This document shows, one piece after another, positions 5,542-35,865 of a stretch of DNA of 41,609 bases. The DNA is from a virus (Duplodnaviria > Heunggongvirae > Uroviricota > Caudoviricetes). The notes under the pieces were generated by a model. The model had not been told where the DNA came from. It was given only the letters and a program-made list of their open reading frames with translations, and did not search any database. The position numbers and the translations under genes are program-made. The first letter of the stretch is position 1, and each line of letters starts with the position of its first letter. The stretch lies in IMG/VR virus record IMGVR_UViG_2939152649_000003. One strand, written 5' to 3'.

Positions 5542-5787
5542 ATGCCAAAATCAGAAACAACCATAAAATTTACTCCAGCTATTTGGAAAGAGTTACTTCC
5601 TGTAATCCAGGATAACATACCCGCTAATGACTATGTAGTAAGTAAAAGAGTCAGAACGGGTGATTCTCCTGGCGCTATTGGCACAATTCTCGAAATATCT
5701 ATTACCGTTATCACATCATCACCAGCTTGTATCGCCATTGCATCGATAGCGAGAAAATGGTTACAGACCAGATCATCAAAAAAATAA
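5542..5787 (+). CDS. Hypothetical protein (AT-rich moron); the -1 frame continues open to 5891
   Basis: 81-aa ORF ending ...SSKK at an A7 run (5778..5784) followed by TAA. The -1 frame stays open for 35 more codons and stops just before a plus-strand terminator. Minus-strand ORFs 5403..5618 and 5631..5822 overlap it and are read as antisense shadows. Confidence 0.35.
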   Translation: MPKSETTIKFTPAIWKELLPVIQDNIPANDYVVSKRVRTGDSPGAIGTILEISITVITSSPACIAIASIARKWLQTRSSKK

Positions 5788-16455: not shown

Positions 16456-17709
16456 TTATTTGTTACGTTTCCAGAATTCGGCGTTGATTTTGTTCAACTC
16501 AGCCGGGGACATTGGGCCGCGGGCGCGGTCGCCAGTTGGTTTGCCTGAAGGCGGGGTGATGCGGTTCTTTGCCTTACTGATCTCGACTGCAGCCTTAAAC
16601 ACCGCATCGACAGTGGCCTTCGGCGCTTTGGCGAAGTCGGAAATGCCAAACGCCTTCAGGCTGTCGCCTGTGCGCAGCGCCTGGTTGAGTACCTGACGCT
16701 TCAGGCCTTTGTCGCCGGCAGGCTGGAAGCCCGGGCAGATGATCTCTGCGTCGCCGATGATGTTGCGCTTATAGGCCGCATCGCCGGTTACCTTCGCATC
16801 CTCTTTCGCGTCTTCGTCACCGGTTTTGGTTTCGTCGTCCAGATCAGCATCGCCAGTTTTGCCTTCCAGCTTATCGAGTCGAGCAATCAGAGCCTGCGCC
16901 CAGGCGGGCACCTCTTCATCACCGGTTTTCTTTTCCGGATCGGTATCTTCATCGACCGTGGTCTTCTGGTCTGCTGGCAGCGCGGTAGCCTGTGAAGGCA
17001 CGTTCATGTTGATGGTTACGCCGGGGATGGAACCCATGCCGTCAGATGGCATGTCCGGCGCTTCATCGATGAGCTTCGTCAGCGCGTCCTCATCTTTCGT
17101 CTTAATGGCCTGAGCCAGTTTTTTCAGCCATGACATTGCAGGCTTCTCCTTTGGTTTTGATGGGGCCGAATCCCCGATTGCACAGCGGGAGCCCGCCCGG
17201 CCCTTATCAACGATGGCCAGATGGTTTCCTGTGATTTCTGTTTGCTTGCCCTTGCCCGGGCCGATTTGCACGTACTGGGCGTCGTAGCCACAGCTGACCT
17301 GGTTTTTACCAGCGTTGACCGCATCGATGCCTTCCTGCCGCTTCACCAGCACATCAGCGATCAACAGGTCGGTTTTATCGCCGGTGCCGCGGCGGACGTT
17401 CTGGATATGGCCATGGGCCAGCTCCGCGAAGTTCGCCGGGTTAACGAAAACGATGTTGCCTTCGCCGTCTTCCGGGTGATCCAGCGTTACCGCCATGCCC
17501 TCGAAGCTCGCCATAGTCTCTGGAGAGAAAACCTCGTCCTCGGTGCGATAGATGACCACCAGCCCATCTGCGCCAGGCTCAAGGCCGATTTCTTCGGGAA
17601 GATAGGTTTGCGTGCCGGTGCGGGCGATCGGGACGTCTTTGCACAGCAGGGAGCCGTCCGCCAGCTGGTAGCGCGTTTCGCCAAGGCGGGTAATGAAGAA
17701 GTATTTCAT
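16456..17709 (-). CDS. Prohead scaffold/protease-like protein
   Basis: 417-aa product with an acidic, low-complexity C-terminal half (TGDEDAKEDAK...), as in scaffold proteins. Confidence 0.45.
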   Translation of the reverse strand: MKYFFITRLGETRYQLADGSLLCKDVPIARTGTQTYLPEEIGLEPGADGLVVIYRTEDEVFSPETMASFEGMAVTLDHPEDGEGNIVFVNPANFAELAHGHIQNVRRGTGDKTDLLIADVLVKRQEGIDAVNAGKNQVSCGYDAQYVQIGPGKGKQTEITGNHLAIVDKGRAGSRCAIGDSAPSKPKEKPAMSWLKKLAQAIKTKDEDALTKLIDEAPDMPSDGMGSIPGVTINMNVPSQATALPADQKTTVDEDTDPEKKTGDEEVPAWAQALIARLDKLEGKTGDADLDDETKTGDEDAKEDAKVTGDAAYKRNIIGDAEIICPGFQPAGDKGLKRQVLNQALRTGDSLKAFGISDFAKAPKATVDAVFKAAVEISKAKNRITPPSGKPTGDRARGPMSPAELNKINAEFWKRNK

Positions 17710-17876
17710 GGGTTACCTGCTGAATTGCGGGCAGTAAAAAGGCCGCGCAGTAGCAGCCACTGGGGTTTATCTAATGCTTTAGCACGAGCTCTTCACCACT
17801 AATTTTCGGCCTTGACACTCTAAATTCGATAGTGAAAACATGAACATTGATTCCCACCACCAAAAGGAGTTTTGAA

Positions 17877-18074
17877 ATGAGCACTAAAGCAGAATTGTTA
17901 GCGAAGATGGATCGCATGGCAGATGAGTGGTCACGCACCACTGGCCTCAACAATGACTATGTTGAGGGCGAGCGTTACACCAAAATCAAAGACCAACTTG
18001 CAGCGCTCGGGGTGAACGCTCGCATTGATGCCGTAGAGGGTAATTCAGCTCAATTCAGGGTTTATGTAGATTGA
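17877..18074 (+). CDS. Hypothetical protein (opposite-strand moron inside the head module)
   Basis: 65-aa ORF MSTKAELLAKMDRMADEW... with an AAAGGAG RBS 8 nt upstream and an intrinsic terminator after it. Confidence 0.5.
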   Translation: MSTKAELLAKMDRMADEWSRTTGLNNDYVEGERYTKIKDQLAALGVNARIDAVEGNSAQFRVYVD

Positions 18075-18087
18075 GAAAGCCTCCCTC

Positions 18088-18118
18088 CCAGCCATCCTTG
18101 TGATGGCTTTTTTATTTC
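18088..18118 (+). terminator. Intrinsic terminator (plus strand)
   Basis: AGCCATC-CTTGT-GATGGCT followed by TTTTTTATTT. Confidence 0.55.
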
Positions 18119-18870
18119 CTGGGATTTGGCACCTGCACTTCCGGCCAGCATTTGCAGTTCGGCAGGCACCCGGCGTGCCCGGTCATACCGTCCAGCGTCG
18201 GCGGGTTATCCCAGCGCACAAACTTATCTTTCATCCAGCGATGTGAATCGCGCGTTCCGGCCCCTTCGATGCGCCACCAGTAGCCCTCAGAGCCAATCGA
18301 CTCAGCGCGCGCCTGGGTGAGCGCTGTCGTGGCCCGGCCGATTTCGGTGCGGGCGATCATCTTCGCGCGGCTCTCTGCCACGTCGCCGGACTCCATAATC
18401 ATCCGATAGAGCGCGTCGGGGCGCTCACCGTTTATGACGGCTTCCATTGCGCGCTCCTGGATGTCACGAACGCGGTCGGCAGCTTCCAGCGGAAGAGATT
18501 TAATCAGCTGCACCTGGCGGGATACGATGTCCTGAGCCACGAACCCCACCGGCGTATTGCCGACAACATCCCGCAGCCCCTCAGAGATTTCCTGCGACAC
18601 AGAGCGCCACTGGTTCCACTCCTCCTGCTCAACCTGCAGGAACATGCGTTTGGCTACCCGGTCGGCCCAGTCGTCAATCAGCAGCGAGTAATCTATCAGC
18701 CGGGCGCTAACCTGCTCGGCGCTCGCTTCCGAACCATCGTAGGAGCCAGTTACTATCGCGCCGCACTGACGCGCTATCTCCTGTAGACTTTTCTGATACT
18801 GGCGCTCCGATTTGCGGCGGAGGTTCGGTTTCAGATTCAGCCTCCTCCCATTCTGCTTTGGCATCTTCAA
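18112..18870 (-). CDS. Head morphogenesis protein (Mu gpF-like)
   Basis: 252-aa ORF directly after the portal gene. The start is uncertain because it overlaps the portal 3' end by 164 bp. Confidence 0.55.
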   Translation of the reverse strand: MKMPKQNGRRLNLKPNLRRKSERQYQKSLQEIARQCGAIVTGSYDGSEASAEQVSARLIDYSLLIDDWADRVAKRMFLQVEQEEWNQWRSVSQEISEGLRDVVGNTPVGFVAQDIVSRQVQLIKSLPLEAADRVRDIQERAMEAVINGERPDALYRMIMESGDVAESRAKMIARTEIGRATTALTQARAESIGSEGYWWRIEGAGTRDSHRWMKDKFVRWDNPPTLDGMTGHAGCLPNCKCWPEVQVPNPRK

Positions 18871-22282: not shown

Positions 22283-22543
22283 ATGTCAGATGTAGAAAAA
22301 AGAATTGCCCATCTTGAGGATTTGGTTGAAGAGTTACAGTTACACAGCCACGCTTCTCGTGTTGCTATTGCTGTATTATCAACGGCTTTAAACGGAGTTG
22401 TGGGGAAAGAAACTCACCTCGGAGATGTTTATTTAGAAGGGGTTTCTAAGGCCGCCCCCATCGAATTCGACATTCCCGCTAAAGATGGATACCTAGAAAA
22501 ATTAAACGAGAGAGTCGCTGCTCTACTAGGCAGAGCACAATAA
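22283..22543 (+). CDS. Hypothetical protein (opposite-strand moron between lysis and terminase)
   Basis: 86-aa AT-rich ORF with an AAGGA RBS. It occupies the position of bor in lambda but has no signal peptide. Confidence 0.5.
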   Translation: MSDVEKRIAHLEDLVEELQLHSHASRVAIAVLSTALNGVVGKETHLGDVYLEGVSKAAPIEFDIPAKDGYLEKLNERVAALLGRAQ

Positions 22544-24838: not shown

Positions 24839-25669
24839 TTATCGAGTTATTGCTCGCAGTTGCGATTCGGCCCACGCTTCTTCCATGTCGAATTTGGTGA
24901 TCAGCCGGTCGTAAAACGGCTTCACTGACTTTTTCCAGGTGTCCAGAGTAATGGCGTCGGTAATAAGGCAAACAGCCGCATATGCCTCAGTCGAGGGGAT
25001 CCGCTCATACCCGCGCCCGCCGCAGCGCTTGCAGTCGGCCATCACCGGCGCGCCCTGCTTTTCTGTCAGCGTCTTGCTGACAGCTTTTCCGCGCCCCTGG
25101 CAGTCATTACATGCGCAGCTGACGACCTTCTTCCCTTTGCAGGCCGAGCACAGCACCCGGGCCACCTCTTTCACCTCACGCCGATTCTGATGCTGCGAAG
25201 GGATAACCTTCAGCCCCCATTTTTTTGATTTTTGAATGATGTCTTTTGCGCAGCCAGAGATGCTGGTTTTCATACTAAAAACGTCAGCCTCAATGAACCC
25301 CTGCCCTGCGCAACATTCGCACCTCTTGACGCTGGCGGCGCTGCGGGAATAGTCCTCAAAAGCGAAGGTAGCAAGCTGGCGCATCACCAGCGGTTTAACC
25401 CCAGCGTCCAGTTTGCGCAGGGCAGCCACGCTATCGCATTTTGTCAGCGCATACTGGGCCAGCAGCTCGATCGCTCTCTCCCGATCGTTGTTGCTGATGC
25501 CCATCTTTCCGAGAAAGGCACTGTAGCCCATGGCGGCGCGTTCCTGGGTCATGCCCATGGCTGCCATGATGTCCGTTCCGGTCAGCGAGTCGGAGGCCGT
25601 AGCGCGCGGAGAGTCGCTAATCAGCGTCGATTTGGCGAAGTGGTATTTCACGGTGTTTTCGAGGTTCAT
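24839..25669 (-). CDS. Late-gene antiterminator Q
   Basis: 276-aa product with Cys-rich zinc-binding motifs, immediately upstream of the PR'-like region and lysis cassette. Start overlaps the ylcG-like stop. Confidence 0.7.
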   Translation of the reverse strand: MNLENTVKYHFAKSTLISDSPRATASDSLTGTDIMAAMGMTQERAAMGYSAFLGKMGISNNDRERAIELLAQYALTKCDSVAALRKLDAGVKPLVMRQLATFAFEDYSRSAASVKRCECCAGQGFIEADVFSMKTSISGCAKDIIQKSKKWGLKVIPSQHQNRREVKEVARVLCSACKGKKVVSCACNDCQGRGKAVSKTLTEKQGAPVMADCKRCGGRGYERIPSTEAYAAVCLITDAITLDTWKKSVKPFYDRLITKFDMEEAWAESQLRAITR

Positions 25670-25806
25670 GCAGCAGCTCCTGCCAACTGGTTAATGCGAA
25701 TAAAATTGCGAAGAATGCGGTAGTCCACCAGCACCGAACCCGGGCGGCGATAAATGCGGAGGCGTGTCCAGCGCATGCGGATTACCTCAATCAGTTCTGA
25801 TGTCAT
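25666..25806 (-). CDS. YlcG-like small protein
   Basis: 46-aa [27 protein letters not shown]... found by translation; below the ORF-track cutoff. ATGA-coupled to both RusA and Q, as in the DLP12 rusA-ylcG-Q order. Confidence 0.5.
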
Positions 25807-26166
25807 AAGTCCCCCAGTTCGGTGATGGTCAGCTCCAGCCTGCCGCCCCTGACGACGGGCATCCGTATAACGCGGTAGTCGTCCACCAGCTGATCGTCCT
25901 GCCAGAATCCGGCCTTAGTAAGCGCGTCGAACGCGGCCTTCTGCAGGTTGTCCAGGTCACGGCGGCGGCGGTCAGGCATATGGCACTCGATGCGAATCTT
26001 CACCGGGCCGGAGATGCCGATATCCAGCAGCTGGTCTTTGATGATTTGGGCCACGCGGTCGCGGTAAGCCTGCCCTTCCGTGCTGATGTGCGTACGCCCG
26101 CGATTGTGTCGGTAATAGCGGTTATTACTCGGTGGCCACGGCAATGTGATTTTGTACTCGCTCACG
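25803..26166 (-). CDS. rusA: Holliday junction resolvase RusA
   Basis: About 120-aa product with a RusA-like sequence (…[29 protein letters not shown]…[13 protein letters not shown]…). Probable GTG start overlapping the upstream stop. Confidence 0.85.
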
Positions 26167-26452
26167 CTTTCACCTTCCCCTCTTTCAGCCAGATAACCTG
26201 CGTGCGGGCCATGCCCTCCAGCGCGCACTCCTTTGCATAATCCGCGTCGACCAGGCGAGTGCGGCGGTCGATTTCGTCGTGACAGCTGCTGCATGCAATG
26301 GTGGCAATCAGATCAGGCGGCTTAATTCCGGTACCGCACAGCCCGGCCAGGCGAATATGCGCCAGCACGCTTGTGTCTGGGTTGCCGTTGCACACGCCGG
26401 GGATCCGAACCTGACATTCGCGACCGCGCGCAGCTTTGCGTAAATCCGCCAT
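26162..26452 (-). CDS. YbcO-like (DUF1364) putative nuclease
   Basis: 96-aa product from [26 protein letters not shown]... with Cys/His motifs. The long ORF-track N-terminus is rejected. Confidence 0.55.
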
Positions 26453-26454
26453 GC

Positions 26455-26664
26455 TCACCCCCAGACCTTCTGACGGAGTGACCGCGGCGTACGTTCCTGC
26501 CGGTGCGCCTCCGGCAGCCGGGCGCTGACGGTCCAGGTGACGTAATCGGGATTCAGGCTTCGCTCTACCTTCACGCCGCGGCGCCGGTATTCCGCCATGA
26601 GCTCGTCGGCCTGCTGCGTGGTGCACTCGGTGTGCTGGAACCATGTTTCTTTCATCGGCATCAC
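26455..26664 (-). CDS. Hypothetical nin-region protein
   Basis: 69-aa ORF translationally coupled on both sides. Confidence 0.4.
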   Translation of the reverse strand: MMPMKETWFQHTECTTQQADELMAEYRRRGVKVERSLNPDYVTWTVSARLPEAHRQERTPRSLRQKVWG

Positions 26665-27260
26665 CCCACGAAGCTCATGAGCTGCGCAGCGGCATTATCC
26701 GCGTCGCTACGGCTCTTGAATGCCCTGGACAGGATCCAACGCCACAGAACATCGAGTGCGGCCCTGTAGAGTTGCTGGAACTCGGTTTCGTCCATATTGG
26801 CGAAGGCGATGCTGCGGGGGTGTTTGCGGAGGGTGCCGTCAGGCAGCTGGATCGCGTCGTAGTGGCCGGATTCGATGGTTACCCAGGCGCGGTAGGCGTC
26901 GAATGACTTGCAGGCGCTGATGCTGCCCGTGCGCTTATCAGCGATGCGCTCGAGATATTGCTCAGCGGCATCCAGCAGCGCCCCTTCGTTCCCGCCGTAG
27001 GAGGCCAGAAATCTGGCATAGCCGGTCACCAGCTTGCGTTCGTTGGAAGAGATCGCCCCGCCGGTTGGCTCCCAGTATTCGAACCCGAGGTTTAAAAGCG
27101 CGAAGAAGCGGCGGTGGAAAGCCGGATTGCGGACCTGTTTGAAGTCGGCTACCAGCACGGCGCCGAGTTTGATTTTTGATTGCAGAATATCGCTGGTCTC
27201 CGGCGTCGCGGGGATCAGGATTCCTGATGACTGCTTGATGAGTTGTAGTTCGTGCGCCAT
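26661..27260 (-). CDS. Hypothetical nin-region protein
   Basis: 199-aa ORF upstream of the YbcO-like and RusA genes. Confidence 0.45.
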   Translation of the reverse strand: MAHELQLIKQSSGILIPATPETSDILQSKIKLGAVLVADFKQVRNPAFHRRFFALLNLGFEYWEPTGGAISSNERKLVTGYARFLASYGGNEGALLDAAEQYLERIADKRTGSISACKSFDAYRAWVTIESGHYDAIQLPDGTLRKHPRSIAFANMDETEFQQLYRAALDVLWRWILSRAFKSRSDADNAAAQLMSFVG

Positions 27261-27294
27261 GGTTTCTCTCCGTGGCGCAGTAGGTTACGGTTGT

Positions 27295-27543
27295 TCAGAC
27301 CGTTGATTTCATATTATCAGAAGGTTGGGTTACCCGGTAGCCGAGACGGTTAATAAACTGCATAAAACCATTAGGAGTAAAGACCTCTTCATCATCCAGC
27401 AAAGGCCGCATAGAAACCATGCCATTGACGCGATAAATTAGATGCCTGCCCGATGAAGGAAAGCTAAACACCACGCAGCCGTCAGACCTTCTTACAATGT
27501 CATACCAGTTGTCTTCTGACGTTTGCAAAGCTGAATCACTCAC
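27295..27543 (-). CDS. Hypothetical protein
   Basis: 82-aa ORF between DinI and the nin genes. Confidence 0.4.
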   Translation of the reverse strand: MSDSALQTSEDNWYDIVRRSDGCVVFSFPSSGRHLIYRVNGMVSMRPLLDDEEVFTPNGFMQFINRLGYRVTQPSDNMKSTV

Positions 27544-27660
27544 ATTTATGTTCTCCCTTCGAGCGACTAACAGACGCGATTAAAGATTGTCGGCAGCAGC
27601 ATCAGAGGGTTACGCAAATTGCGGTATTCTGAAAAATGCGCGCCAGCCTTAAGCGCAATT

Positions 27661-27894
27661 CTAATAAAACCAGTCGTCAGCGCTTTCCCAGGTATCCTGG
27701 AGGATTGATTCAATTTTCTTTTTATCGTCCTTGTCACCACCAAAAACACTTAACCCATCGGCCCCGGCACGGCGGATTGTGAGCCTGCAATTGTCATAGT
27801 GATCATTCAGGCGCTTAAGCAGTTCTTTCTCCAGTGCTGGTACTGCGCCTTTAGGAAGTTCTTTCATGCGATCAATGGTTAATTCAACTTTCAC
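27661..27894 (-). CDS. dinI: DinI-like SOS-inducible protein
   Basis: VKVELTIDRMKELPKGAVPAL...ILQDTWESADDWFY aligns along its length with E. coli DinI as recalled. GTG start at 27894 behind a GGGGG RBS. Confidence 0.85.
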   Translation of the reverse strand: MKVELTIDRMKELPKGAVPALEKELLKRLNDHYDNCRLTIRRAGADGLSVFGGDKDDKKKIESILQDTWESADDWFY

Positions 27895-27912
27895 AATGGC
27901 CCCCATTGCACG

Positions 27913-27932
27913 TACTGTGTTTTTATACAGTA
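27913..27932. promoter_or_regulatory. LexA (SOS) box TACTGTGTTTTTATACAGTA
   Basis: Matches CTG-N10-CAG with palindromic TACTG...CAGTA ends, 19 bp upstream of the dinI-like start. Confidence 0.7.
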
Positions 27933-27992
27933 TACCTATGCGCGGAAATGATCAACGTTTTAAGAGCACAAATTGTTAATTTTCTGTCAGTA

Positions 27993-28022
27993 GTAAAAAA
28001 AGAAAACCCGCCGTAGCGGGTT
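27993..28022 (-). terminator. Intrinsic terminator (minus strand) at the accessory-island boundary
   Basis: AACCCGC-CGTA-GCGGGTT with UUCUUUUUUUACUA downstream on the minus strand. Confidence 0.5.
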
Positions 28023-28373
28023 GAATTAGCAGTGTTATATTAAGCGGCAATTTCTTTCTGCCGGCACAATCCCGAGAGATTCGCCCTCTGTATCGCATCA
28101 TCAATGAGCACCTGTATGACCATGAGGCAAAGCGTTATCCAACTTGCATTCATCTTTTTCAATCAGCAAAGGAGTGGTTAGTGCTGTGAGTGGGCTTTGT
28201 TCACTTCATGGTAGATAAATCAGCTATGGATAAGTGATAAGAGGTGAAATCAATCCGAATTAACAACCTGAAGCACATTAATCGGAACACAGATATTAAA
28301 ATCCTAAAGTCTAGTAACAAATAGCCGATATGAGATATTGCTTATCAGTTTAAAAATCATCTATTGAAAAAAT

Positions 28374-28380
28374 GGGGGGG
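28374..28380. repeat. Homopolymeric G7 tract at the 5' end of ORF 28386..28991
   Basis: ATG at 28372 runs into GGGGGG. With G7 that ATG is out of frame and stops after 5 codons; G8 would put it in frame with the 201-aa ORF. Confidence 0.9.
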
Positions 28381-28385
28381 AGGCG

Positions 28386-28991
28386 TTGAAGCGAGTAGAG
28401 CGCGATTTTATCTGTCTGTTTAATTGTGTGTGGTATCAAGATTTCCCTGTGTTCAAAGGTGAATATATCAACCGTTCCAACTGGACCATTCATGTTGGCC
28501 TGGTCATGCGCGAGTGTGCAAAGTTAATGGGCGCAAGAACATTTTTTGAACAAGGCGGGCGTACCGATGCGGTCCTACAATATCCAGACAATCAAATTTT
28601 AACCTATGTTGAGTGGGAGTATAATCAGGCAGACAGAGATAGCGTTAACGAGTTAGACAAACTGCTTGAAAAAAACGACAAGTGCTATTTCTCCACATTC
28701 ATCTCATATTGTCAGCATGAAAACATCAATATTGTTATTGAAAAAGCAAGTAGAATATGGAGTGAAGCAAGCAGGCCTTTGATTTTTTTTCTTATCACCT
28801 ATGAGCCTCAAACGAAAAAACGCCGCCATTTTTTAGAACTCAGAACTTATTTTTTCTCAAACGGCAAAAGAAAACTAGTTCGCAAACAACCTGCGCTTCC
28901 ATGGGATATTGAGCAACGAAATACAATGTCGAAGAAGATGCAGGATAGAAGAGACATAAGGTTTTCACGACAGTCTCGTTTCGAGCCCTAA
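28386..28991 (+). CDS. Hypothetical 201-aa protein (AT-rich accessory gene)
   Basis: ORF beginning at TTG 28386. Contains YPDNQILTYVEWEY and IVIEK, faintly reminiscent of a PD-(D/E)xK nuclease core. Confidence 0.5.
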   Translation: MKRVERDFICLFNCVWYQDFPVFKGEYINRSNWTIHVGLVMRECAKLMGARTFFEQGGRTDAVLQYPDNQILTYVEWEYNQADRDSVNELDKLLEKNDKCYFSTFISYCQHENINIVIEKASRIWSEASRPLIFFLITYEPQTKKRRHFLELRTYFFSNGKRKLVRKQPALPWDIEQRNTMSKKMQDRRDIRFSRQSRFEP

Positions 28992-29171
28992 CTAAAATAT
29001 TCTGTTCGGAGCAACCAAATAGCTCTGGCTTTGCTGTGACCATGTTCGCGGTACCAACGCCTCTCTAGGTCCGCTTCTCGCTCATGGTGGACCAAAATCA
29101 AATCTAAAATGACGTGGCTAAGCGGGAGTACATAGTGAATGACAGGATGCTCCGGGCAGCACCATACTAAT

Positions 29172-29369
29172 TCAGTTCCCGTCAGAGGTAGGCGTTGCTT
29201 CATGATGGGATGAGCGCTCCCTCCAGACAATCCATGCGACAGCCGCCTCCCATGATATATATCCATTACCGCCATTTTTCGCTCTGCGGAGATTAACTGC
29301 ATCACCAAACCTTTCAATGATGAATTTTTCAAATTCTATGCGTTTTTCTTCGTCGATTGTTGAATCCAT
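29172..29369 (-). CDS. Hypothetical small protein
   Basis: 65-aa ORF MDSTIDEEKRIEFEKFIIERFGDAVNLRRAKNGGNGYISWEAAVAWIVW... Preferred over the overlapping 28988..29332 ORF; low certainty. Confidence 0.3.
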   Translation of the reverse strand: MDSTIDEEKRIEFEKFIIERFGDAVNLRRAKNGGNGYISWEAAVAWIVWRERSSHHEATPTSDGN

Positions 29370-29648
29370 ACCTTCCCCAGAAGAGTCCTACGAATCGCTC
29401 TTATTGCATAAAAAATAGCATATACAATAGAGAGTGAAAAACCGACGTAGCGGGTTAACTTTATGTTACTCATGAGTCTTGTCTCGCTGCGACTTAAAAG
29501 CGGAACATTCTCGCGCAAGTTGCGTTGCTAAAGCTACGGGGTTGAATGGCTCTCCATGCCCATTTAAGAAGGCATGCGGTGTGTAGTTGAACGTTATTTA
29601 AAACACAGATAGAATCAAGAAAAATCCTAAATAAATGGAATATTGTTT

Positions 29649-30029
29649 ATGGCTAAGAAAATCGCATTACTGGGCTTTTCTGCTCTTTTTGTTGCAAGTG
29701 TTGCTTTTGCTGAAACGACAAGTAACTGGGTTGAGGTTACTACAGCTGATGATGGCATTTTTTCAGCAAAAAAAGGCACATTTAGAAATGTAAAAGGTGA
29801 TTCATCTGCCTTGTTCATGTATCAAACAAAAAATAAAAAAGTAGAGTACTACAAAGTTAGTATTAAAGATGCCGACTGTGATAGTGGATATGGGGAGATA
29901 AGATTCTTCTATATGGATGGGAAATTAGCTTTCAAAGGTGATTATGTTGCTGATGGGAACAGTGTTGGCGCAGGTATTGGTGATTTTATGTGTGGGGTCA
30001 GAATTGGACTTAACACACAAAAAAGTTAA
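29649..30029 (+). CDS. Secreted hypothetical protein
   Basis: MAKKIALLGFSALFVASVAFA-ETTSN is a typical signal peptide with an AFA-E cleavage site. AT-rich gene. Confidence 0.6.
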   Translation: MAKKIALLGFSALFVASVAFAETTSNWVEVTTADDGIFSAKKGTFRNVKGDSSALFMYQTKNKKVEYYKVSIKDADCDSGYGEIRFFYMDGKLAFKGDYVADGNSVGAGIGDFMCGVRIGLNTQKS

Positions 30030-30069
30030 ATGAGGGGCATTTGTTAAAAAACAATAGCCCCACATTAGA

Positions 30070-30272
30070 TCAATATTGGCTCCGGCATTTCTGGATAAAA
30101 GCTTCTATGCTACGGCGCTCATAGCGAACAACCTTAGCGCTGAACTTTACACGGGGCCAATGTAGACCGGTGTCGGTGTTCTGTATTCCATTTACATAAT
30201 GTTTTTTTGCGTAATTCCCAGCTTCTGGCATACCTCGCCCGGAGTGAGGAGATCATCAGGTTGCTCAGTCAT
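30070..30272 (-). pseudogene. AlpA/Xis-like regulator remnant, disrupted by two frameshifts
   Basis: ATG at 30272 (GAGG RBS) gives MTEQPDDLLTPGEVCQKLGITQKN then a stop. The next frame reads TLCKWNTEH and the third reads GLHWPRVKFSAKVVRYERRSIEAFIQ. Joined, these form a 66-aa AlpA-like protein. Confidence 0.45.
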
Positions 30273-30444
30273 GTTATGCCTCGCTGTTATCTGGGGTGAT
30301 GATTAGCAGCTTCCAGATGGCTGAGACATACATAGCCTGATGTTTCGCATCGACTAGGGCATTATGCATGTCACCTTCAAACGGCATGTCCCGAGTTCTC
30401 CCTTTTCGCCGCTTTCGCGTCGCATATTCTCCAAACGGTATTTA

Positions 30445-31002
30445 TCAATCATTACTGTTATCCTCGCAGTAGTAGTGCCGTCCCTCTGGGTCAGTAGATA
30501 CATGTCCGCAGATATCGCATTCAATTCCAGGAAGCACCGATTCTGACTGCGCTTTGATATGCAGTCGCGGTTCACCGTCTTTCGGCTCTGGCCACTGGCG
30601 GTTTTTGTTAACCGCCAGCTTTTCTACCATCGCCAGGGTAATCTGCTTATCACTGATACCGGCACGACGTTGCGCATCCCATAACAGGAATTGCATGTCA
30701 GCCCATTCGCTCATCTCGTCTGGTTCCGCAGCAGCCTCGATAGCTTCTTTGGAAAGGTGCTTCAGCGGACCAACTGGACCGACATCGCCGAATGTTTCAT
30801 CTGACCATGCTGCATGTTCACAGCGTACCTGCTCACGGGCTATCGACTCCAGAACCCCATCAATCACCTTCACTGCATCAGCCATTGCGTAGCCGAGATT
30901 ACCGCCGTCGCTTTGTGCTGCTGCTTTGCTGAGTATTTCGCGTATCTGGTGCAAGCGATCAAGTGATACAGGACCGTGCGCCGGGTGGTTGTTAGTTGTC
31001 AT
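30445..31002 (-). CDS. Hypothetical protein (DUF550-like nucleotide pyrophosphohydrolase domain?)
   Basis: 185-aa ORF. The domain assignment is from memory only. Confidence 0.4.
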   Translation of the reverse strand: MTTNNHPAHGPVSLDRLHQIREILSKAAAQSDGGNLGYAMADAVKVIDGVLESIAREQVRCEHAAWSDETFGDVGPVGPLKHLSKEAIEAAAEPDEMSEWADMQFLLWDAQRRAGISDKQITLAMVEKLAVNKNRQWPEPKDGEPRLHIKAQSESVLPGIECDICGHVSTDPEGRHYYCEDNSND

Positions 31003-31005
31003 GGG

Positions 31006-31206
31006 TTAGTCCTCTACCTTGTTTCCGCAATGCGGGCAGTAATTGAACTTATGGGCGAATCCAGGATGCGGAACGGCAAAGCGTTTGGTTTTCTCGTTCC
31101 AGTCAGCAATTACGATTTCAAAATTTACGACCGCATTAGCCCAGTCACTGGAAAGAACTGGCTGCGACCCAATCAGGCCGACTATACAGCGATTACATTT
31201 TTCCAC
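31006..31206 (-). CDS. Small zinc-ribbon protein
   Basis: 66-aa ORF with CxxC...CxxC (CNRC...CPHC). Confidence 0.45.
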   Translation of the reverse strand: MEKCNRCIVGLIGSQPVLSSDWANAVVNFEIVIADWNEKTKRFAVPHPGFAHKFNYCPHCGNKVED

Positions 31207-31210
31207 TGAC

Positions 31211-31405
31211 TCACACCCCCTTCACGCCAATGCCAGCAGTAAATCGCGACGGTGACCAATCGCAATATGTGTTCGACTCCGTGTGTCCAAAAATTGCTTT
31301 ACAACGATGGATATGGTGGCAATTACCACATGTTATGCCAGCCGGTAATCGCATCTTGTCGGGATCGGCTGGGTCATAATTCAACGCCAGTTTTTCGGTT
31401 GTCAT
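31211..31405 (-). CDS. Small Cys/His-rich protein
   Basis: 64-aa ORF with CGNCHHIHRC. Confidence 0.4.
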   Translation of the reverse strand: MTTEKLALNYDPADPDKMRLPAGITCGNCHHIHRCKAIFGHTESNTYCDWSPSRFTAGIGVKGV

Positions 31406-31740
31406 GCTGGCATCCTCCCCACGATATCTATAACCCGACGCATAACCGCACTTCCCCGAAAATCTGCTGGTAACTCAATCAGAGGCTTACTCGAACCGTA
31501 TGAGAATCGTTGGAGATCGAAATCAATTACAGCCTTTGGGTCCCTGAACAAATCTAGACGACCGTAACGAATGAGTTCGCCGCGTTCGGCTGCTACGCGG
31601 AAATACTTCTCAGCAGTCTGACGATGCAGCGACAACATCTGTGATGCCTCGCTAACGGTTAAGCGTCCACGGATTTTCACCTCTTCGATGATCACCCGGA
31701 TAAGTGCCGCCTGCTCTTCTGGTGTATTTGGTCTTGGCAT
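31402..31740 (-). CDS. Hypothetical protein downstream of the O-like gene (P position)
   Basis: 112-aa ORF coupled to the O-like gene. Too small for lambda P or a DnaC-like loader. Confidence 0.4.
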   Translation of the reverse strand: MPRPNTPEEQAALIRVIIEEVKIRGRLTVSEASQMLSLHRQTAEKYFRVAAERGELIRYGRLDLFRDPKAVIDFDLQRFSYGSSKPLIELPADFRGSAVMRRVIDIVGRMPA

Positions 31741-31742
31741 GC

Positions 31743-32687
31743 TTACCCCCTGAATCCGGGTGGGATTGTTTTGTCTGGCTCAGAAATGCGGTTCACATCC
31801 CTGCCCGTTTTGCGAGCGTTGAGAGCGAACTTCGGTTTAAACAGTCCCTGGTACCCGTTGGCGATACTGGTGTTGATCACATCAACGGGGTCATGCCCAG
31901 CGTCCAGGCAAGCCTTGAGCAACTTGAATGCTTTGGTGACCGTCATTTCGGTCTTGATGGCTTTGCCAGACTGTTGGCGGTAGGCCACCCACTCACTCCA
32001 GGACACAGAATCAAGCCACTCAGGAACGGGAATCGTCAGCGGGTCAAACTTACCCTTCCCCTTTGGGGGATTAGAGGGGGTTAGATCTGTATTTATATTT
32101 GTATTTGGAAGAATGTCTTTGGTGTTCCCTGTTTTCAGGGATACCTCTCCCTGTTTTTGGGGATGGTTATCCCCGTTTTCAGGGATGATTGAAGGGGTAA
32201 AATTGCTATCCCTGAATTCAGGGATGGTAATAACCCATGTGACAACTTCAGCAGCAGGAAACACCGCTGGACACTTCATGCAATTTGGCTTGGTATACGC
32301 CCATTTATCCAGGCTGGTATTAATCCCTATGTATCTGGTTTGCCCAATGCGGCGCAGGATGATGATGTTCCGATAGGCAAGGCTCAACACGGCTTCAGAG
32401 ACGTGTTTCACCTTCAGCGTCGTTTTATCTGCAATGAGGCTATTGGCGATGCGGTCAGAACTCTTAGACCAGCCATAGGTCAGACGAACGATAGCATTCA
32501 GCACCCGGAACTCGCGCCCGGATAGTTCGACGATACACAGGGCATCCTGAATCTGGTTGGCCAGGCGCAAATAGCCTTTCTCCAGTTCAGCCATGCTGCT
32601 CTCCTGTTTCCCCTGCTGTGTGGGGAATTTGAATATTTCAGCGGTATTTGACATACTGTTCTCCGCAATTACGCACAGTTTTTGCAC
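31743..32687 (-). CDS. Replication initiator protein (lambda O-like)
   Basis: N-terminal region resembles the O N-terminal domain (LSGREFRVLNAIVRLTYGW). Pro/Asn/Thr-rich linker. Ori-type iterons lie inside the coding sequence. Confidence 0.7.
   Translation of the reverse strand: MQKLCVIAENSMSNTAEIFKFPTQQGKQESSMAELEKGYLRLANQIQDALCIVELSGREFRVLNAIVRLTYGWSKSSDRIANSLIADKTTLKVKHVSEAVLSLAYRNIIILRRIGQTRYIGINTSLDKWAYTKPNCMKCPAVFPAAEVVTWVITIPEFRDSNFTPSIIPENGDNHPQKQGEVSLKTGNTKDILPNTNINTDLTPSNPPKGKGKFDPLTIPVPEWLDSVSWSEWVAYRQQSGKAIKTEMTVTKAFKLLKACLDAGHDPVDVINTSIANGYQGLFKPKFALNARKTGRDVNRISEPDKTIPPGFRG
32126..32224. repeat. Replication origin iterons (4 copies) inside the O-like gene
   Basis: TCCCTGTTTTCAGGGA (32126), TCCCTGTTTTTGGGGA (32148), TCCCCGTTTTCAGGGA (32170) and TCCCTGAATTCAGGGA (32209), the first three at 22-bp spacing, beside an AT-rich stretch at 32085..32115. 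Confidence 0.7.
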
Positions 32688-32738
32688 CTGAAAGCCGTTG
32701 GTGTTCGAGCACCGCGGCTTTCGCCATTTCTGAGCCCG

Positions 32739-33296
32739 TCATAGCGCACCACCCAGCATCGTTGTAACCATCGCCATAATGGGCGCCACAGAATCAGGTC
32801 CGTCCAGGTAGAGCTTGGCTACGATGCTCTCGCTGATTTCCTTCATCCGTTCGTGTCTGGGGGCTTTGAGGACGACAGCCTGTATCGCCTCAGCGTCTTC
32901 TTTCACCGACCTGGCGACACGAACCGCAAAGCAGTCGTGCTTAATCACGCGATCCCGGTACGCCAGCGGCAGAACCGAAATTATTACCGGCGCCAGCTGC
33001 TCGACGTTCGCCCGGTAGGCCGGTGATTTCTCGTGGTTGTCCAGCCAGCGAAACAGCTTCACGTTCCACACATCGGCGCTGCCGGTCATGTCAATGCTGT
33101 CAAGCTCGGCCTGTTCGGCAGCCTCTTTAATCGCCAGAGCGACCGCCACGCGGCCCTCTGCCGCCGCCCAGGCGCGGACGGCAGAACAGATAGCCCGGTG
33201 ATCGACCGGCTGGCCTTCAGCCTCACTGTGTTGATACTGGAATTTCAGGTGCTCTGATGGCGCTCTGTTATTCTGTTGAAAAGAAAGTGTTTGCAT
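32739..33296 (-). CDS. Putative early regulator (CII-like / YdaT-like)
   Basis: 185-aa ORF directly downstream of the Cro-like gene and upstream of the O-like gene. Assigned by position. Confidence 0.4.
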   Translation of the reverse strand: MQTLSFQQNNRAPSEHLKFQYQHSEAEGQPVDHRAICSAVRAWAAAEGRVAVALAIKEAAEQAELDSIDMTGSADVWNVKLFRWLDNHEKSPAYRANVEQLAPVIISVLPLAYRDRVIKHDCFAVRVARSVKEDAEAIQAVVLKAPRHERMKEISESIVAKLYLDGPDSVAPIMAMVTTMLGGAL

Positions 33297-33307
33297 TGTC
33301 AGTGCTC

Positions 33308-33526
33308 CTACTTTGGTAATCCGTCAGTGGGATTTGGATAGAGATCAGGGCGCAGCTCGTGGGGGGTTACGCCTGTCATTTTGAAAATCGGGAAGATATA
33401 GCTTGGCGGGACGATCCCTTGGTCACGATTCTTCCAATGACTTACAGACATACTCGTCACACCAAGCGCGATGCTGAGCTTTCTGGCAGAGCCAGCGGCT
33501 TTAATTGCTTTATCGAGTGCGGACAT
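33308..33526 (-). CDS. Cro-like HTH regulator (YdaS/DicC-like)
   Basis: 72-aa HTH protein (KLSIALGVTSMSVSHWK) divergent from the repressor gene. AGGAG RBS. Confidence 0.65.
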   Translation of the reverse strand: MSALDKAIKAAGSARKLSIALGVTSMSVSHWKNRDQGIVPPSYIFPIFKMTGVTPHELRPDLYPNPTDGLPK

Positions 33527-33555
33527 GTGCTTCTCCTGCTTATTGATAGCAGAAG

Positions 33556-33618
33556 TAAACCACAGATTTATACTTCATGCAAACTTTGGATTTATTGCGT
33601 GCATAAACCAAATATTTA
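33556..33618. promoter_or_regulatory. Right operator region with three operator repeats and divergent promoters
   Basis: TAAACCACAGATTTA (33556), CAAACTTTGGATTTA (33580) and TAAACCAAATATTTA (33604) at exact 24-bp spacing. A TTGCGT-16-TACAAT promoter would start transcription at or near the repressor ATG. Confidence 0.55.
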
Positions 33619-33628
33619 CAATGACCAT

Positions 33629-34018
33629 ATGAGAAAAGAAGAACCCAACCTCGTTCTGGTGGAGCGCCTTACTGAGATCACTGATCGCGGCGTTACCAAA
33701 GCAGACATGGCAAGAATAGCTGGAGTCACCCCTCAGGCCGTAAACGGCTGGTTCAAAAAAGGCGTGATTAGTAAGAAATCGGCACTGGCCATAGCCGACG
33801 CTGTTGGTATTTCTGTCGCCTGGCTACTCGGTGAAGACGTTGGGGAGAAAGACGGTCTCAAACCGGACGAACAGCGTTTGCTCGAGCTCTACCGCCAGTT
33901 ACCGGAAGAAGAGCAGCAGAACATGCTCCGCATTTTTGCGCTTCGCCTGAAAGAGTTAGATGAGCTGTACGAGAAGTACATGAAGGGTCGGATTCGATCG
34001 CAAGGTGAGCAAACCTAA
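33629..34018 (+). CDS. DicA-like phage repressor (HTH, no peptidase domain)
   Basis: 130-aa product with an N-terminal HTH (ITDRGVTKADMARIAGVTPQAVNGWFKKG). The C-terminus (LKPDEQRLLELYRQLPEEEQQNMLRIFALRLKELDELYEKYMKGR) parallels DicA as recalled. ATG sits directly after the third operator. Confidence 0.75.
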   Translation: MRKEEPNLVLVERLTEITDRGVTKADMARIAGVTPQAVNGWFKKGVISKKSALAIADAVGISVAWLLGEDVGEKDGLKPDEQRLLELYRQLPEEEQQNMLRIFALRLKELDELYEKYMKGRIRSQGEQT

Positions 34019-34082
34019 ACCAGTAGTATCTAATTCCATGTAATAAAAATATTTCAAGATTTAATATCTTCTGGAGGATTCG

Positions 34083-34364
34083 GTGTCTAAAGAAACAACC
34101 GTCGAACTTATGCATCTTAATGATGTAATCGAAGCGAAAAATTTCATCGAGACCAATGCTGACGGTGTCGTAACAATCGGCACACAAAATGCCGGTTACG
34201 AAGTTTACAATTTTGTGTTCCTGAATAGCAGCCCGATCATCGGTACGGATAATGCGGATATAGTCGTCAAGGGCATGCAGCGAACCAAAGTTGTGTCTGT
34301 GACTTTAAGCAAACAAAAGGCTTATGATTTTTATCAATCCTTAAAAAGTATGTTTGAGGAATAA
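34083..34364 (+). CDS. Hypothetical protein A (immunity-operon accessory gene)
   Basis: 93-aa ORF with a GTG start 5 nt after a GGAGG RBS. AT-rich, co-oriented and 64 bp downstream of the repressor. Confidence 0.6.
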   Translation: MSKETTVELMHLNDVIEAKNFIETNADGVVTIGTQNAGYEVYNFVFLNSSPIIGTDNADIVVKGMQRTKVVSVTLSKQKAYDFYQSLKSMFEE

Positions 34365-34367
34365 TAA

Positions 34368-34892
34368 TTGATGGATGCGGCTCAATCATCTCTTGGTGAA
34401 GGGAAGTTATTGATTGCATATTCAGACCATAGCGGAGCTACAGTAGGCTTAGAGTTTTCATCAGTAGCTTCGAGCCAAGCAACCTTCCTTATGGGTGCTT
34501 GTAGTTTTGCCGCTTCGGATAAACAAAAACGGATTGTCACATCAGTTGCTATGGATGATACTGAAATCATTCATACGTCAACTGAAGATGGAGGTGACGA
34601 CATGGAAAAGAGATTGGCTATTCTTGAGGTTGAAGTTGCCCACATCAAGAAAGATGTTGCCGAGATAAAAAACACAGTTTCAAAAGTTGATACGACAGTG
34701 AATTCACTGGACAAAAATATGGCTGTAGTTTTGGAGAGGCTGTCTAGTATCAAAGAGTCTGTAGACAAAAAGCCCTCATCAGACACAGTGGACAAGAAAA
34801 TCTCTGATGCTAAATTGGCGATTCTCTTAGGTGTCCCTGCGATTATCGCCATTGGTACAGGGCTGTACAAAGCTTTTATGCACTTCTTTTAG
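34368..34892 (+). CDS. Hypothetical membrane-anchored coiled-coil protein B (XhlA/holin-like C-terminus)
   Basis: 174-aa product with a central heptad-like coiled coil and a single C-terminal TM helix (LAILLGVPAIIAIGTGLYKAFMHFF). Start is 4-7 bp after the stop of gene A. Confidence 0.65.
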   Translation: MMDAAQSSLGEGKLLIAYSDHSGATVGLEFSSVASSQATFLMGACSFAASDKQKRIVTSVAMDDTEIIHTSTEDGGDDMEKRLAILEVEVAHIKKDVAEIKNTVSKVDTTVNSLDKNMAVVLERLSSIKESVDKKPSSDTVDKKISDAKLAILLGVPAIIAIGTGLYKAFMHFF

Positions 34893-34966
34893 TCAGATTT
34901 GGTCAATACGCCTGAGTTATAAGGCTCTCAGCTACTAACTCTGTCGCCTTCCCCGAACCTTCTCAT

Positions 34967-34992
34967 CCCGACCACGCGTCGGGATTTTTTTT
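34967..34992 (+). terminator. Intrinsic terminator closing the repressor-A-B operon
   Basis: CCCGAC-CACGC-GTCGGG followed by ATTTTTTTT. Confidence 0.7.
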
Positions 34993-35031
34993 GCCTGCGA
35001 TTCTGCAGACGTGTCACAAAACCCAGCCACA

Positions 35032-35095
35032 TAAACCTCAGATTTACAACTAACACTAACCTTAAGTTGACACATATATAAACCAGTGATTTAAT
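35032..35095 (+). promoter_or_regulatory. Early-left promoter (pL-like) with two operator repeats
   Basis: TTGACA (35067) - 17 bp - TTTAAT (35090). Operator copies TAAACCTCAGATTTA (35032) and TAAACCAGTGATTTA (35079); the second overlaps the -10. Confidence 0.6.
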
Positions 35096-35347
35096 CTAAC
35101 TCACCAAGACGCACCACGAACCACCCAGGCATGGAGCCCACGAAGTAGCCGTCCGGGGCATACGAAAACCGGAATGAGGTGGTGATATTAACGCGCAGTA
35201 GGTTTGAAACGTTCCGCCAGCCTGGCGACAAGGGCAAACACAGAAGTGAGCTTCGCGGTGGTGAATTGCAGAGTTAAAACGCTCAACTGTGAAGATCAGC
35301 GTCACGGCACCACCAGCGAAGTTCACTCAGCAATAGTGGAGAACATC

Positions 35348-35554
35348 ATGGTTCATCAGCACTACGGTACACAGACAGTAAACCGCGGCGCAGTTCAGCC
35401 GGGGATGCTTGTAAAACACAAAGACTCAACCTGGACCGCATCTGCTAACGCACGCGGTCGCCTGTATCTTCACCGTGGCATCGAACGTACCTACACCAAA
35501 GATTTGCTGGTTGAGGTTTATCTAAACGGTTTAGGACATGGCCTTAGCCATTAA
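35348..35554 (+). CDS. Hypothetical early protein
   Basis: 68-aa ORF from MVHQHYGTQ with a GGAGAA RBS. The ORF-track start at 35204 is less convincing. Confidence 0.4.
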   Translation: MVHQHYGTQTVNRGAVQPGMLVKHKDSTWTASANARGRLYLHRGIERTYTKDLLVEVYLNGLGHGLSH

Positions 35555-35565
35555 CGGAGTGAGTT

Positions 35566-35727
35566 ATGCAGGAGAAAAAATGCGCGTACTGCCGCAAGCC
35601 GATCAAGCAAGGGAAGGAAGTTAAAAACGAACTGCTCTTTATCCACGGCACGCAGTTGAAACGCGAGCAACGTGATTACTGTTCAGTACGTTGCGCTTCG
35701 TTCGACCAGATGGCCCACGAAGCATAA
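35566..35727 (+). CDS. Small zinc-ribbon protein (53 aa)
   Basis: MQEKKCAYCRKPIKQGKEVKNELLFIHGTQLKREQRDYCSVRCASFDQMAHEA with a GGAGTGAG RBS. Below the ORF-track cutoff. Confidence 0.45.
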   Translation: MQEKKCAYCRKPIKQGKEVKNELLFIHGTQLKREQRDYCSVRCASFDQMAHEA

Positions 35728-35865
35728 CGAAAACCCCGCGCAAGGCGAGATTCACGTCCGGTGCCACCGACCAAAGTTACACCGGAATTTATACCAAACC
35801 AAAAAACATCCAATGGGCGCTATCTCTGGCCCGGGGATTCTAACACTCAAAAAAGAGGATCTCAC

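Follow-up and report, generated by a model that had tools for sequence, protein, structure and literature searches.

The window (the whole 41,609-nucleotide stretch analyzed here, IMG/VR record IMGVR_UViG_2939152649_000003) carries, within its head gene cluster, a small opposite-strand gene cassette that by sequence criteria is an uncharacterized moron with a predicted promoter. We consider the best explanation, at a rough probability of 55%, to be an autonomous accessory cassette that was inserted at the junction between the Mu F-like (MuF) head-morphogenesis gene and the DUF2213 gene, lies against the late operon, and encodes a product (here termed ORF65) active in mobile-element or host conflict. 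The anatomy of the cassette as described below is held with high confidence. Assignment of ORF65 to a functional class, a small protein inhibitor in such a conflict, is far less certain, at below even odds. A conflict role appears most likely because relatives of ORF65 are lone accessory genes beside restriction-modification and toxin-antitoxin genes. The analysis adds a predicted promoter, alignment-based evidence of selection, a definition of the insertion site, a small protein family, and a modeled fold that is unmatched.

The window is a lambdoid Escherichia coli prophage with a contractile-tail structural module, and its late region is 100% identical to that of NZ_CP062811 and three other complete genomes. 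In the PGAP annotation of the NZ_CP062811 copy, the late genes run on the minus strand in the order Q-type antiterminator, holin/lysozyme/Rz1, small and large terminase, portal (DUF1073/Phage_portal_3), MuF, DUF2213, cement, and major capsid, followed by the neck, sheath, tube, and baseplate genes. Pfam and PHROG scans of the window agree with this order. The features of the junction and the late operon are as follows.

16456-17709, minus strand: DUF2213 (Pa193 gp24-like) head protease/scaffold gene (PF09979, 2e-42; phrog_1961 and phrog_530, "head maturation protease")
17731-17758, minus strand: left boundary hairpin and U-run (hairpin 17741-17758, GGCYGC-N6-GCGGCC), outside the insertion
17759-18111, plus strand: inserted cassette, ~350 bp of low GC, between the ancestral minus-strand hairpin and the MuF stop codon
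17877-18074, plus strand: ORF65, 65 aa, ATG at 17877 and stop codon at 18072-18074
18112-18645 by PGAP, with a longer ORF to 18870, minus strand: MuF gene (Phage_Mu_F; PF04233, 5e-13; phrog_324, 2e-78)
24839-25669: Q antiterminator gene, upstream of the late operon

Two observations concern the annotation and mosaic nature of this region. An alternative TTG start at 18870 would lengthen the MuF-like ORF to 252 aa, phrog_324 aligns from residue 1 of that form, and gene callers give 177 to 225 aa for MuF in related loci; thus, the PGAP start (18645) may be too late, and the gene may in reality extend into the 3′ end of portal or be linked to portal through a frameshift. In addition, the early region (approximately 25400 to 36400) is unlike that of NZ_CP062811 despite the identical late region. 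The joining of the ORF65-bearing late module to different early modules in different strains is ordinary lambdoid mosaicism.

The original prediction had described a 65-aa ORF with a strong ribosome-binding site and a canonical terminator, transcribed against the late operon between scaffold-like and head-morphogenesis genes. As candidate roles it had tentatively offered lysogenic conversion, antidefense, and regulation. Each part of the structural description held. The ATG, the stop codon, and AAGGAG are all in place, the flanking DUF2213 and MuF genes both lie on the minus strand, and the terminator (stem at 18090-18108 plus T-run) folds with −10.7 kcal/mol (z = −2.5 versus shuffles). PGAP also calls the gene, as the hypothetical protein WP_053271619.1, with the translation MSTKAELLAKMDRMADEWSRTTGLNNDYVEGERYTKIKDQLAALGVNARIDAVEGNSAQFRVYVD. 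A literature search on this accession returned nothing.

A word-indexed search of 5.8 billion proteins retrieved seven ORF65 clusters with 71 to 100% identity, each exactly 65 aa long. The DNA context was read for five divergent clusters and for ten additional loci that encode the identical protein; at every locus examined, the gene occupied the MuF/DUF2213 slot in the opposite orientation. The head modules that carry it share 63 to 97% protein identity and are associated with two different large-terminase types. Nei-Gojobori dN/dS values were 0.05 to 0.20 for all informative pairs, and the variable columns fell at codon positions 1, 2, and 3 in numbers of 27, 11, and 50. The five other frames, counting both strands, contain one to eight stops in every homologue, and one homologue uses a GTG start in place of ATG at the same position. 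Judged from these alignments, ORF65 is a real gene under strong purifying selection, and the low dN/dS, invariant length, and kept start codon indicate that the protein itself is selected. The identical protein is present in several hundred draft E. coli assemblies of pig, human, frog, and river origin. When an alignment of close homologues was used as the query, only three identical copies were retrieved from IMG/VR, and no ORF65 locus was found in species-representative genomes.

Comparison with related head modules revealed the cassette as an insertion. GC content is 0.45 to 0.46 across 17700-18100, versus 0.57 to 0.63 on both sides. Klebsiella phages Mulock and GZ7 share the head module, and in these phages the MuF stop codon and the DUF2213 start are separated by 51 bp that hold only the hairpin, its U-run, and a ribosome-binding site. 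The slot of E. coli DX6 contains 261 bp of unrelated noncoding DNA. In E. coli GZ2408P, whose MuF and portal proteins are 96% identical to those of the window, it contains a different gene of 139 aa on the late-operon strand and without a Pfam family (locus L003, 3541-3960). Because ORF65, the DX6 noncoding DNA, and the GZ2408P gene all occupy the same junction, the sequences identify it as a recurrent site for accessory DNA. The cassette DNA was found in 4 of 5,426 complete E. coli genomes, once in each and always at this position, and its divergence tracks that of the head module. This single position and parallel divergence fit a long-term vertical resident of one sublineage that is not currently moving. 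An 11-nt direct repeat (17702-17712 and 18113-18123) was considered as a target-site duplication. It was rejected, since each copy falls within conserved sequence (DUF2213 start or MuF C terminus) that is also present in cassette-less phages.

The edges of the cassette are the conserved left hairpin and the MuF stop codon. The left hairpin, which the scan listed as terminator-like, precedes the DUF2213 start by about 20 nt on the late-operon strand. It is present in all relatives, including Mulock, GZ7, DX6, and GZ2408P, which lack ORF65, and was also located at L013 2531-2557 and L002 3715-3742. Across the E. coli and Klebsiella phages, the hairpin and ribosome-binding-site region is more conserved than the adjacent coding DNA. 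Two variants pair only on the minus strand (through U-G), and one pairs only on the plus strand. Possible roles for this element include an attenuator, a stabilizer of the mRNA end, or a processing site.

These observations bear on the moron concept of Juhala and Hendrix (PMC3594210). The cassette is absent from the same junction in close relatives (Mulock, GZ7, DX6, and GZ2408P), its nucleotide composition is deviant, and it has its own terminator with a 7-bp, GC-containing stem and a T-run. The element TTGACA-N18-TGaAAACAT, its predicted promoter, is invariant with fixed spacing in all seven loci, but the −10 hexamer matches consensus at only 3/6 positions and a consensus scan was negative. 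The reading of the locus as an opposite-strand moron is thus sustained by the insertion relative to related head modules, the GC drop, the terminator, and the footprinted, predicted promoter. Conservation in related prophages, on which the original prediction had staked this reading, was also observed: ORF65 is selected in one subclade and is absent or replaced in sister phages, which is the pattern expected of a moron.

The control elements of the cassette were delineated by footprinting, that is, by aligning the whole intergenic region from the seven loci.

17812-17817, plus strand: predicted −35 hexamer TTGACA (6/6 consensus; 6/6 bases invariant in seven loci)
17833-17841, plus strand: predicted extended −10 element TGaAAACAT, 18 nt after the −35 hexamer (9/9 bases invariant)
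17864-17869, plus strand: Shine-Dalgarno sequence AAGGAG, 7 nt before the ORF65 ATG
18090-18117, plus strand: ORF65 intrinsic terminator, stem AGCCATC/GATGGCT, loop CTTGT, then TTTTTATTT

All 15 bases of the two promoter elements were invariant among the seven loci, versus 14 to 40% of columns in the adjacent noncoding DNA (25% in the segment from the hairpin to the −35 hexamer, 40% in the spacer, and 14% in the leader). The spacer contained zero indels in any locus. We read TTGACA-N18-TGaAAACAT as a putative sigma-70 promoter, an element beyond the first account of this locus. Its predicted −10 hexamer, AAACAT, matches TATAAT at three of six positions (A2, A5, and T6) and is therefore weak, relying on the extended TG. 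The consensus promoter scan listed no promoter in the cassette because it demands at least 4/6 matches in each hexamer. Transcription is predicted to start near 17848, giving a leader of about 29 nt, and no operator-like repeat was found at the promoter. The A-rich GGAG core of the Shine-Dalgarno sequence is kept in six of the seven loci, with AAAGGG in the remaining one.

The terminator consists of a 7-bp stem (18090-18096 and 18102-18108) with a 5-nt loop, and its T-run overlaps the MuF stop codon (18112-18114, minus strand). Across the seven loci, each stem arm is 100% invariant, compared with 17% for the loop and 0% for the stretch between the ORF65 stop codon and the stem. Because the minus strand lacks a U-run, the terminator is orientation specific and should stop only the ORF65 transcript. 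Formal pair counting gave no covariation, as the stem never varies; by eye, the outermost pair changes from A-U to G-U to G-C if one alignment gap is shifted. Neither a minus-strand promoter nor an ORF for an antisense partner was found in the cassette. Rfam identified no family in the window, and a subthreshold asX2 hit (20 bits versus a gathering score of 70) was discarded.

The lack of a recognizable family, also noted in the original prediction, is true of curated libraries: ORF65 and its relatives matched nothing in Pfam, NCBIfam, PHROGs, or PADLOC. A small uncharacterized family nevertheless exists. When 1.84 billion representatives were searched exhaustively with a profile, 12 proteins were retrieved at E ≤ 0.001, eleven of them new, with 25 to 60% identity. 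The family signature is W-x5-L-S-N-D-Y-S-E-G-x-R-Y. These distant relatives are mostly 64 to 74 aa long; two (P0016 and P0017) carry unrelated C-terminal extensions, in which no domain was matched. A tblastn search with ORF65 against 50,697 phage records gave no match, nor did a tblastn search with one distant relative against plasmids. A sequence profile search of the PDB with ORF65 returned only noise.

ORF65 is hydrophilic throughout, soluble, and mildly acidic (pI 5.0; charge of about −2.5; GRAVY −0.57), with no cysteines, signal peptide, membrane segment, or basic surface. A first AlphaFold (AF2) model built from seven close sequences was poor (pLDDT 66), and the Foldseek/PDB hits from it were discarded as meaningless for that reason. 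With 13 input sequences (the seven close sequences plus 6 of the 11 distant relatives), AF2 yielded a model with a pLDDT of 91 and a pTM of 0.74. In this model, a helix at residues 4 to 20 and a second helix at residues 28 to 43 are followed by a β-hairpin with strands at residues 48 to 53 and 56 to 64. The modeled fold has no structural neighbor in the PDB or BFVD. ORF65 is most likely a binder of another protein, and not of DNA or a membrane. The candidate contact site is a conserved region comprising W18 together with L24-x-N26-D27-Y28-x-E30-G31-x-x-Y34, at the turn from helix 1 to helix 2.

Several of the distant relatives could be placed in context. In Marinomonas sp. TW1, the relative has an nSTAND/Mrr gene as a neighbor within a P2-like prophage region. 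On a metagenomic conjugative or mobilizable element, a lone opposite-strand relative is located between genes for a Phd-type antitoxin and type I restriction-modification on one side and a TraG coupling protein on the other. A phage-like contig carries a relative directly after a Gp49/HTH_37 toxin-antitoxin pair, and a Janthinobacterium contig carries one near ParE and CcdAB. No constant neighbor or partner gene was found among the family members with a readable context. Among the relatives whose context could be read, the common denominator apparent from the sequences is mobile-element accessory cargo, often a lone gene oriented against its neighbors.

These data lead us to propose a course of expression for the cassette. 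Late genes are silent in a lysogen, and Q-modified polymerase ignores terminators. Because the cassette promoter would need no phage activator, the repressed prophage probably expresses ORF65, which would also be made right after DNA entry. During lytic growth, Q-antiterminated late transcription would cross the cassette in the opposite direction and probably silence it by convergent transcription. Since Q-modified polymerase disregards such signals, the cassette and the ancestral hairpin should leave the late operon unbroken. With its one-directional terminator, the ORF65 transcript would finish precisely at the MuF stop codon and should not continue as antisense RNA into MuF and portal. The product itself would act as a stoichiometric protein binder. 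The most likely forms of conflict are defense of the lysogen against other phages, as performed by Tab, and inhibition of a host defense.

In Pseudomonas phage JBD26, the 83-aa moron Tab (tail assembly blocker) has its own promoter and is encoded within the late operon but on the opposite strand; Tab is produced by the prophage and prevents invading phages from assembling their tails (PMC10884400). In architecture, Tab is the closest, albeit nonhomologous, analogue of ORF65. Both are small proteins without a known domain, encoded on the opposite strand inside a late structural/packaging operon and under their own promoter (predicted in the case of ORF65). Homology was rejected, with no BLASTP alignment at E ≤ 100 and an hhalign probability of 0.2%. 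Tab is always accompanied by a same-strand anti-Tab gene, whereas the ORF65 cassette has no companion ORF on either strand. Moreover, the presence of ORF65 relatives on a conjugative element would not be explained by a Tab-like inhibitor of virion assembly. This occurrence suggests a target that is not virion specific and argues against a strictly Tab-like mechanism.

The cassette also resembles the classical lambdoid morons (HK97 gene 15, lambda bor, and lom; Juhala et al., 2000; PMC3594210) in being extra DNA of deviant GC, with its own terminator and a predicted promoter, between conserved late genes. In contrast to the membrane or outer membrane products of those genes, ORF65 is soluble and cytoplasmic, and it is unrelated in sequence to any of them, given the lack of a tblastn hit in the 50,697 phage records. 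A Bor/Lom/Cor-type envelope moron was rejected: ORF65 lacks a signal peptide, a lipobox cysteine, and a membrane segment, its GRAVY is −0.57, and AF2 predicts a soluble α/β domain. Lambda bor is likewise transcribed against the late genes.

A third comparison concerns the insertion site. In the Mu-like phage JBD26, the junction between the F/G-like and scaffold genes carries small accessory genes, called hypothetical proteins in the JBD26 record. These are reported to be the anti-CRISPR locus, followed by an aca HTH regulator gene (Bondy-Denomy et al., 2013). The JBD26/JBD30 accessory locus and the ORF65 slot are the same kind of junction (portal, MuF, slot, protease/scaffold, capsid), occupied by small variable genes. 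The JBD26/JBD30 genes, however, are on the late-operon strand, whereas ORF65 stands by itself on the opposite strand, and the head modules are not closely related. An anti-CRISPR operon was rejected for the cassette, which has no adjacent aca (HTH) gene and contains a single ORF between two structural genes. A type I or type II toxin-antitoxin system was also rejected, given the absence of a partner ORF in the cassette, of an Rfam hit, and of a consistent neighbor across the family. The toxin-antitoxin genes near some ORF65 relatives differ from locus to locus.

Of the rival explanations, an infection-phase counterdefense gene survives best, although we judge it unlikely. The host-type promoter would fire at DNA entry, and the protein would inhibit a host immune protein in the manner of Acr, Ocr/Ard-type, or Gad/Tad-type inhibitors; any production in the lysogen would then be incidental or would shield the prophage from self-targeting. 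A constitutive-looking sigma-70 promoter without an operator-like repeat is consistent with this role, as are the small, acidic, and soluble product, the relatives beside type I restriction-modification and coupling protein genes on a conjugative element and beside toxin-antitoxin loci, and the small accessory genes at the equivalent JBD26 junction. However, no aca-type HTH gene lies alongside ORF65, and its orientation against the late operon implies that it would be shut off once late transcription starts. ORF65 also resembles no solved inhibitor in sequence or fold, and a net charge of about −2.5 is far from that of a DNA mimic.

Somewhat less probable still is a host-directed lysogenic conversion factor that alters host physiology, stress tolerance, or virulence, outside any phage-phage or defense conflict. 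The classical morons lambda bor and Gifsy-2 sodC act in this way (PMC3594210), and the identical protein recurs across the hundreds of E. coli assemblies of varied origin noted above. ORF65 is also intact in some assemblies where adjacent structural genes are truncated (L027-L030), but these truncated neighbors come from draft scaffolds of uncertain quality. The protein is cytoplasmic, with neither an export signal nor similarity to an enzyme or regulator. Its relatives in environmental Marinomonas, in Janthinobacterium, and on metagenomic elements make a host-specific virulence role unlikely.

A mainly transcriptional function is improbable. Under this explanation, the convergent promoter with opposed terminators on its flanks would shield the capsid genes from read-through in the lysogen or determine how much upstream (terminase, portal, and MuF) relative to downstream (scaffold and capsid) late transcript is made, with the ORF being secondary. 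The promoter and both hairpins are indeed the most conserved noncoding elements, and a terminator-like hairpin on the late strand directly precedes DUF2213 in all relatives. That hairpin also occurs in cassette-less phages, however, and is thus independent of the cassette. The dN/dS of 0.05 to 0.2, invariant length, and kept start codon point instead to the protein, as do distant homologues in quite different genomic settings, and the predicted transcript overlaps neighboring coding regions only at the MuF stop codon. A spurious reading frame in AT-rich intergenic DNA, which the short length (65 aa) and lack of a curated family might suggest, is effectively refuted by the purifying selection and codon-position pattern, the conserved length, start, and stop in seven variants, the 12 significant distant homologues among 1.84 billion representatives, and the confident AF2 fold.

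A broader proposal, which we regard as speculative and rather unlikely, is that ORF65 founds a new family of very small mobile-element inhibitors, expressed constitutively from the prophage and acting through the conserved W...LSNDYSEG.RY surface on rival-phage development or on a host immune protein. Under this proposal, if ORF65 were to target head assembly of related phages, its position in the head module and its codivergence with MuF and DUF2213 would reflect allele-specific self-immunity, making it a head-directed counterpart of Tab. Morons house the genes by which temperate phages alter lysogens (defense, counterdefense, and virulence), and most of these have come from small, unannotated, oddly oriented ORFs. 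ORF65 overturns nothing in this respect and is one among many uncharacterized morons. It is nonetheless a hypothetical protein that now has mapped control elements, evidence of selection, a structural model, and distant relatives, and thus constitutes a defined target. Further accessory genes may be harvested from the MuF/protease-scaffold junction of this head module, which is widespread in E. coli and Klebsiella.

The window contains two other opposite-strand inserts. A second low-GC insert (5542-5787, plus strand) lies inside the baseplate/tail genes, has its own terminator-like hairpin, and encodes an EACC1-domain protein (PF19953, 1e-6). An A7 tract shortens the ORF to 81 aa; NZ_CP062811 has A8 and an intact 116-aa ORF (L001 8542-8892), and the truncation reads as a homopolymer slip or sequencing error. 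A third opposite-strand ORF (22283-22543, plus strand; 86 aa; GC of 0.43 to 0.47) is located between the small terminase and lysis genes. It has no Pfam hit, is called hypothetical by PGAP, and is probably another moron. Finally, the annotation of the left end of the prophage (positions 1 to 1800) places an invertase-type serine recombinase beside oppositely oriented tail-fiber-assembly genes, which points to a possible Gin/Cin/Pin-like invertible segment that governs host range.
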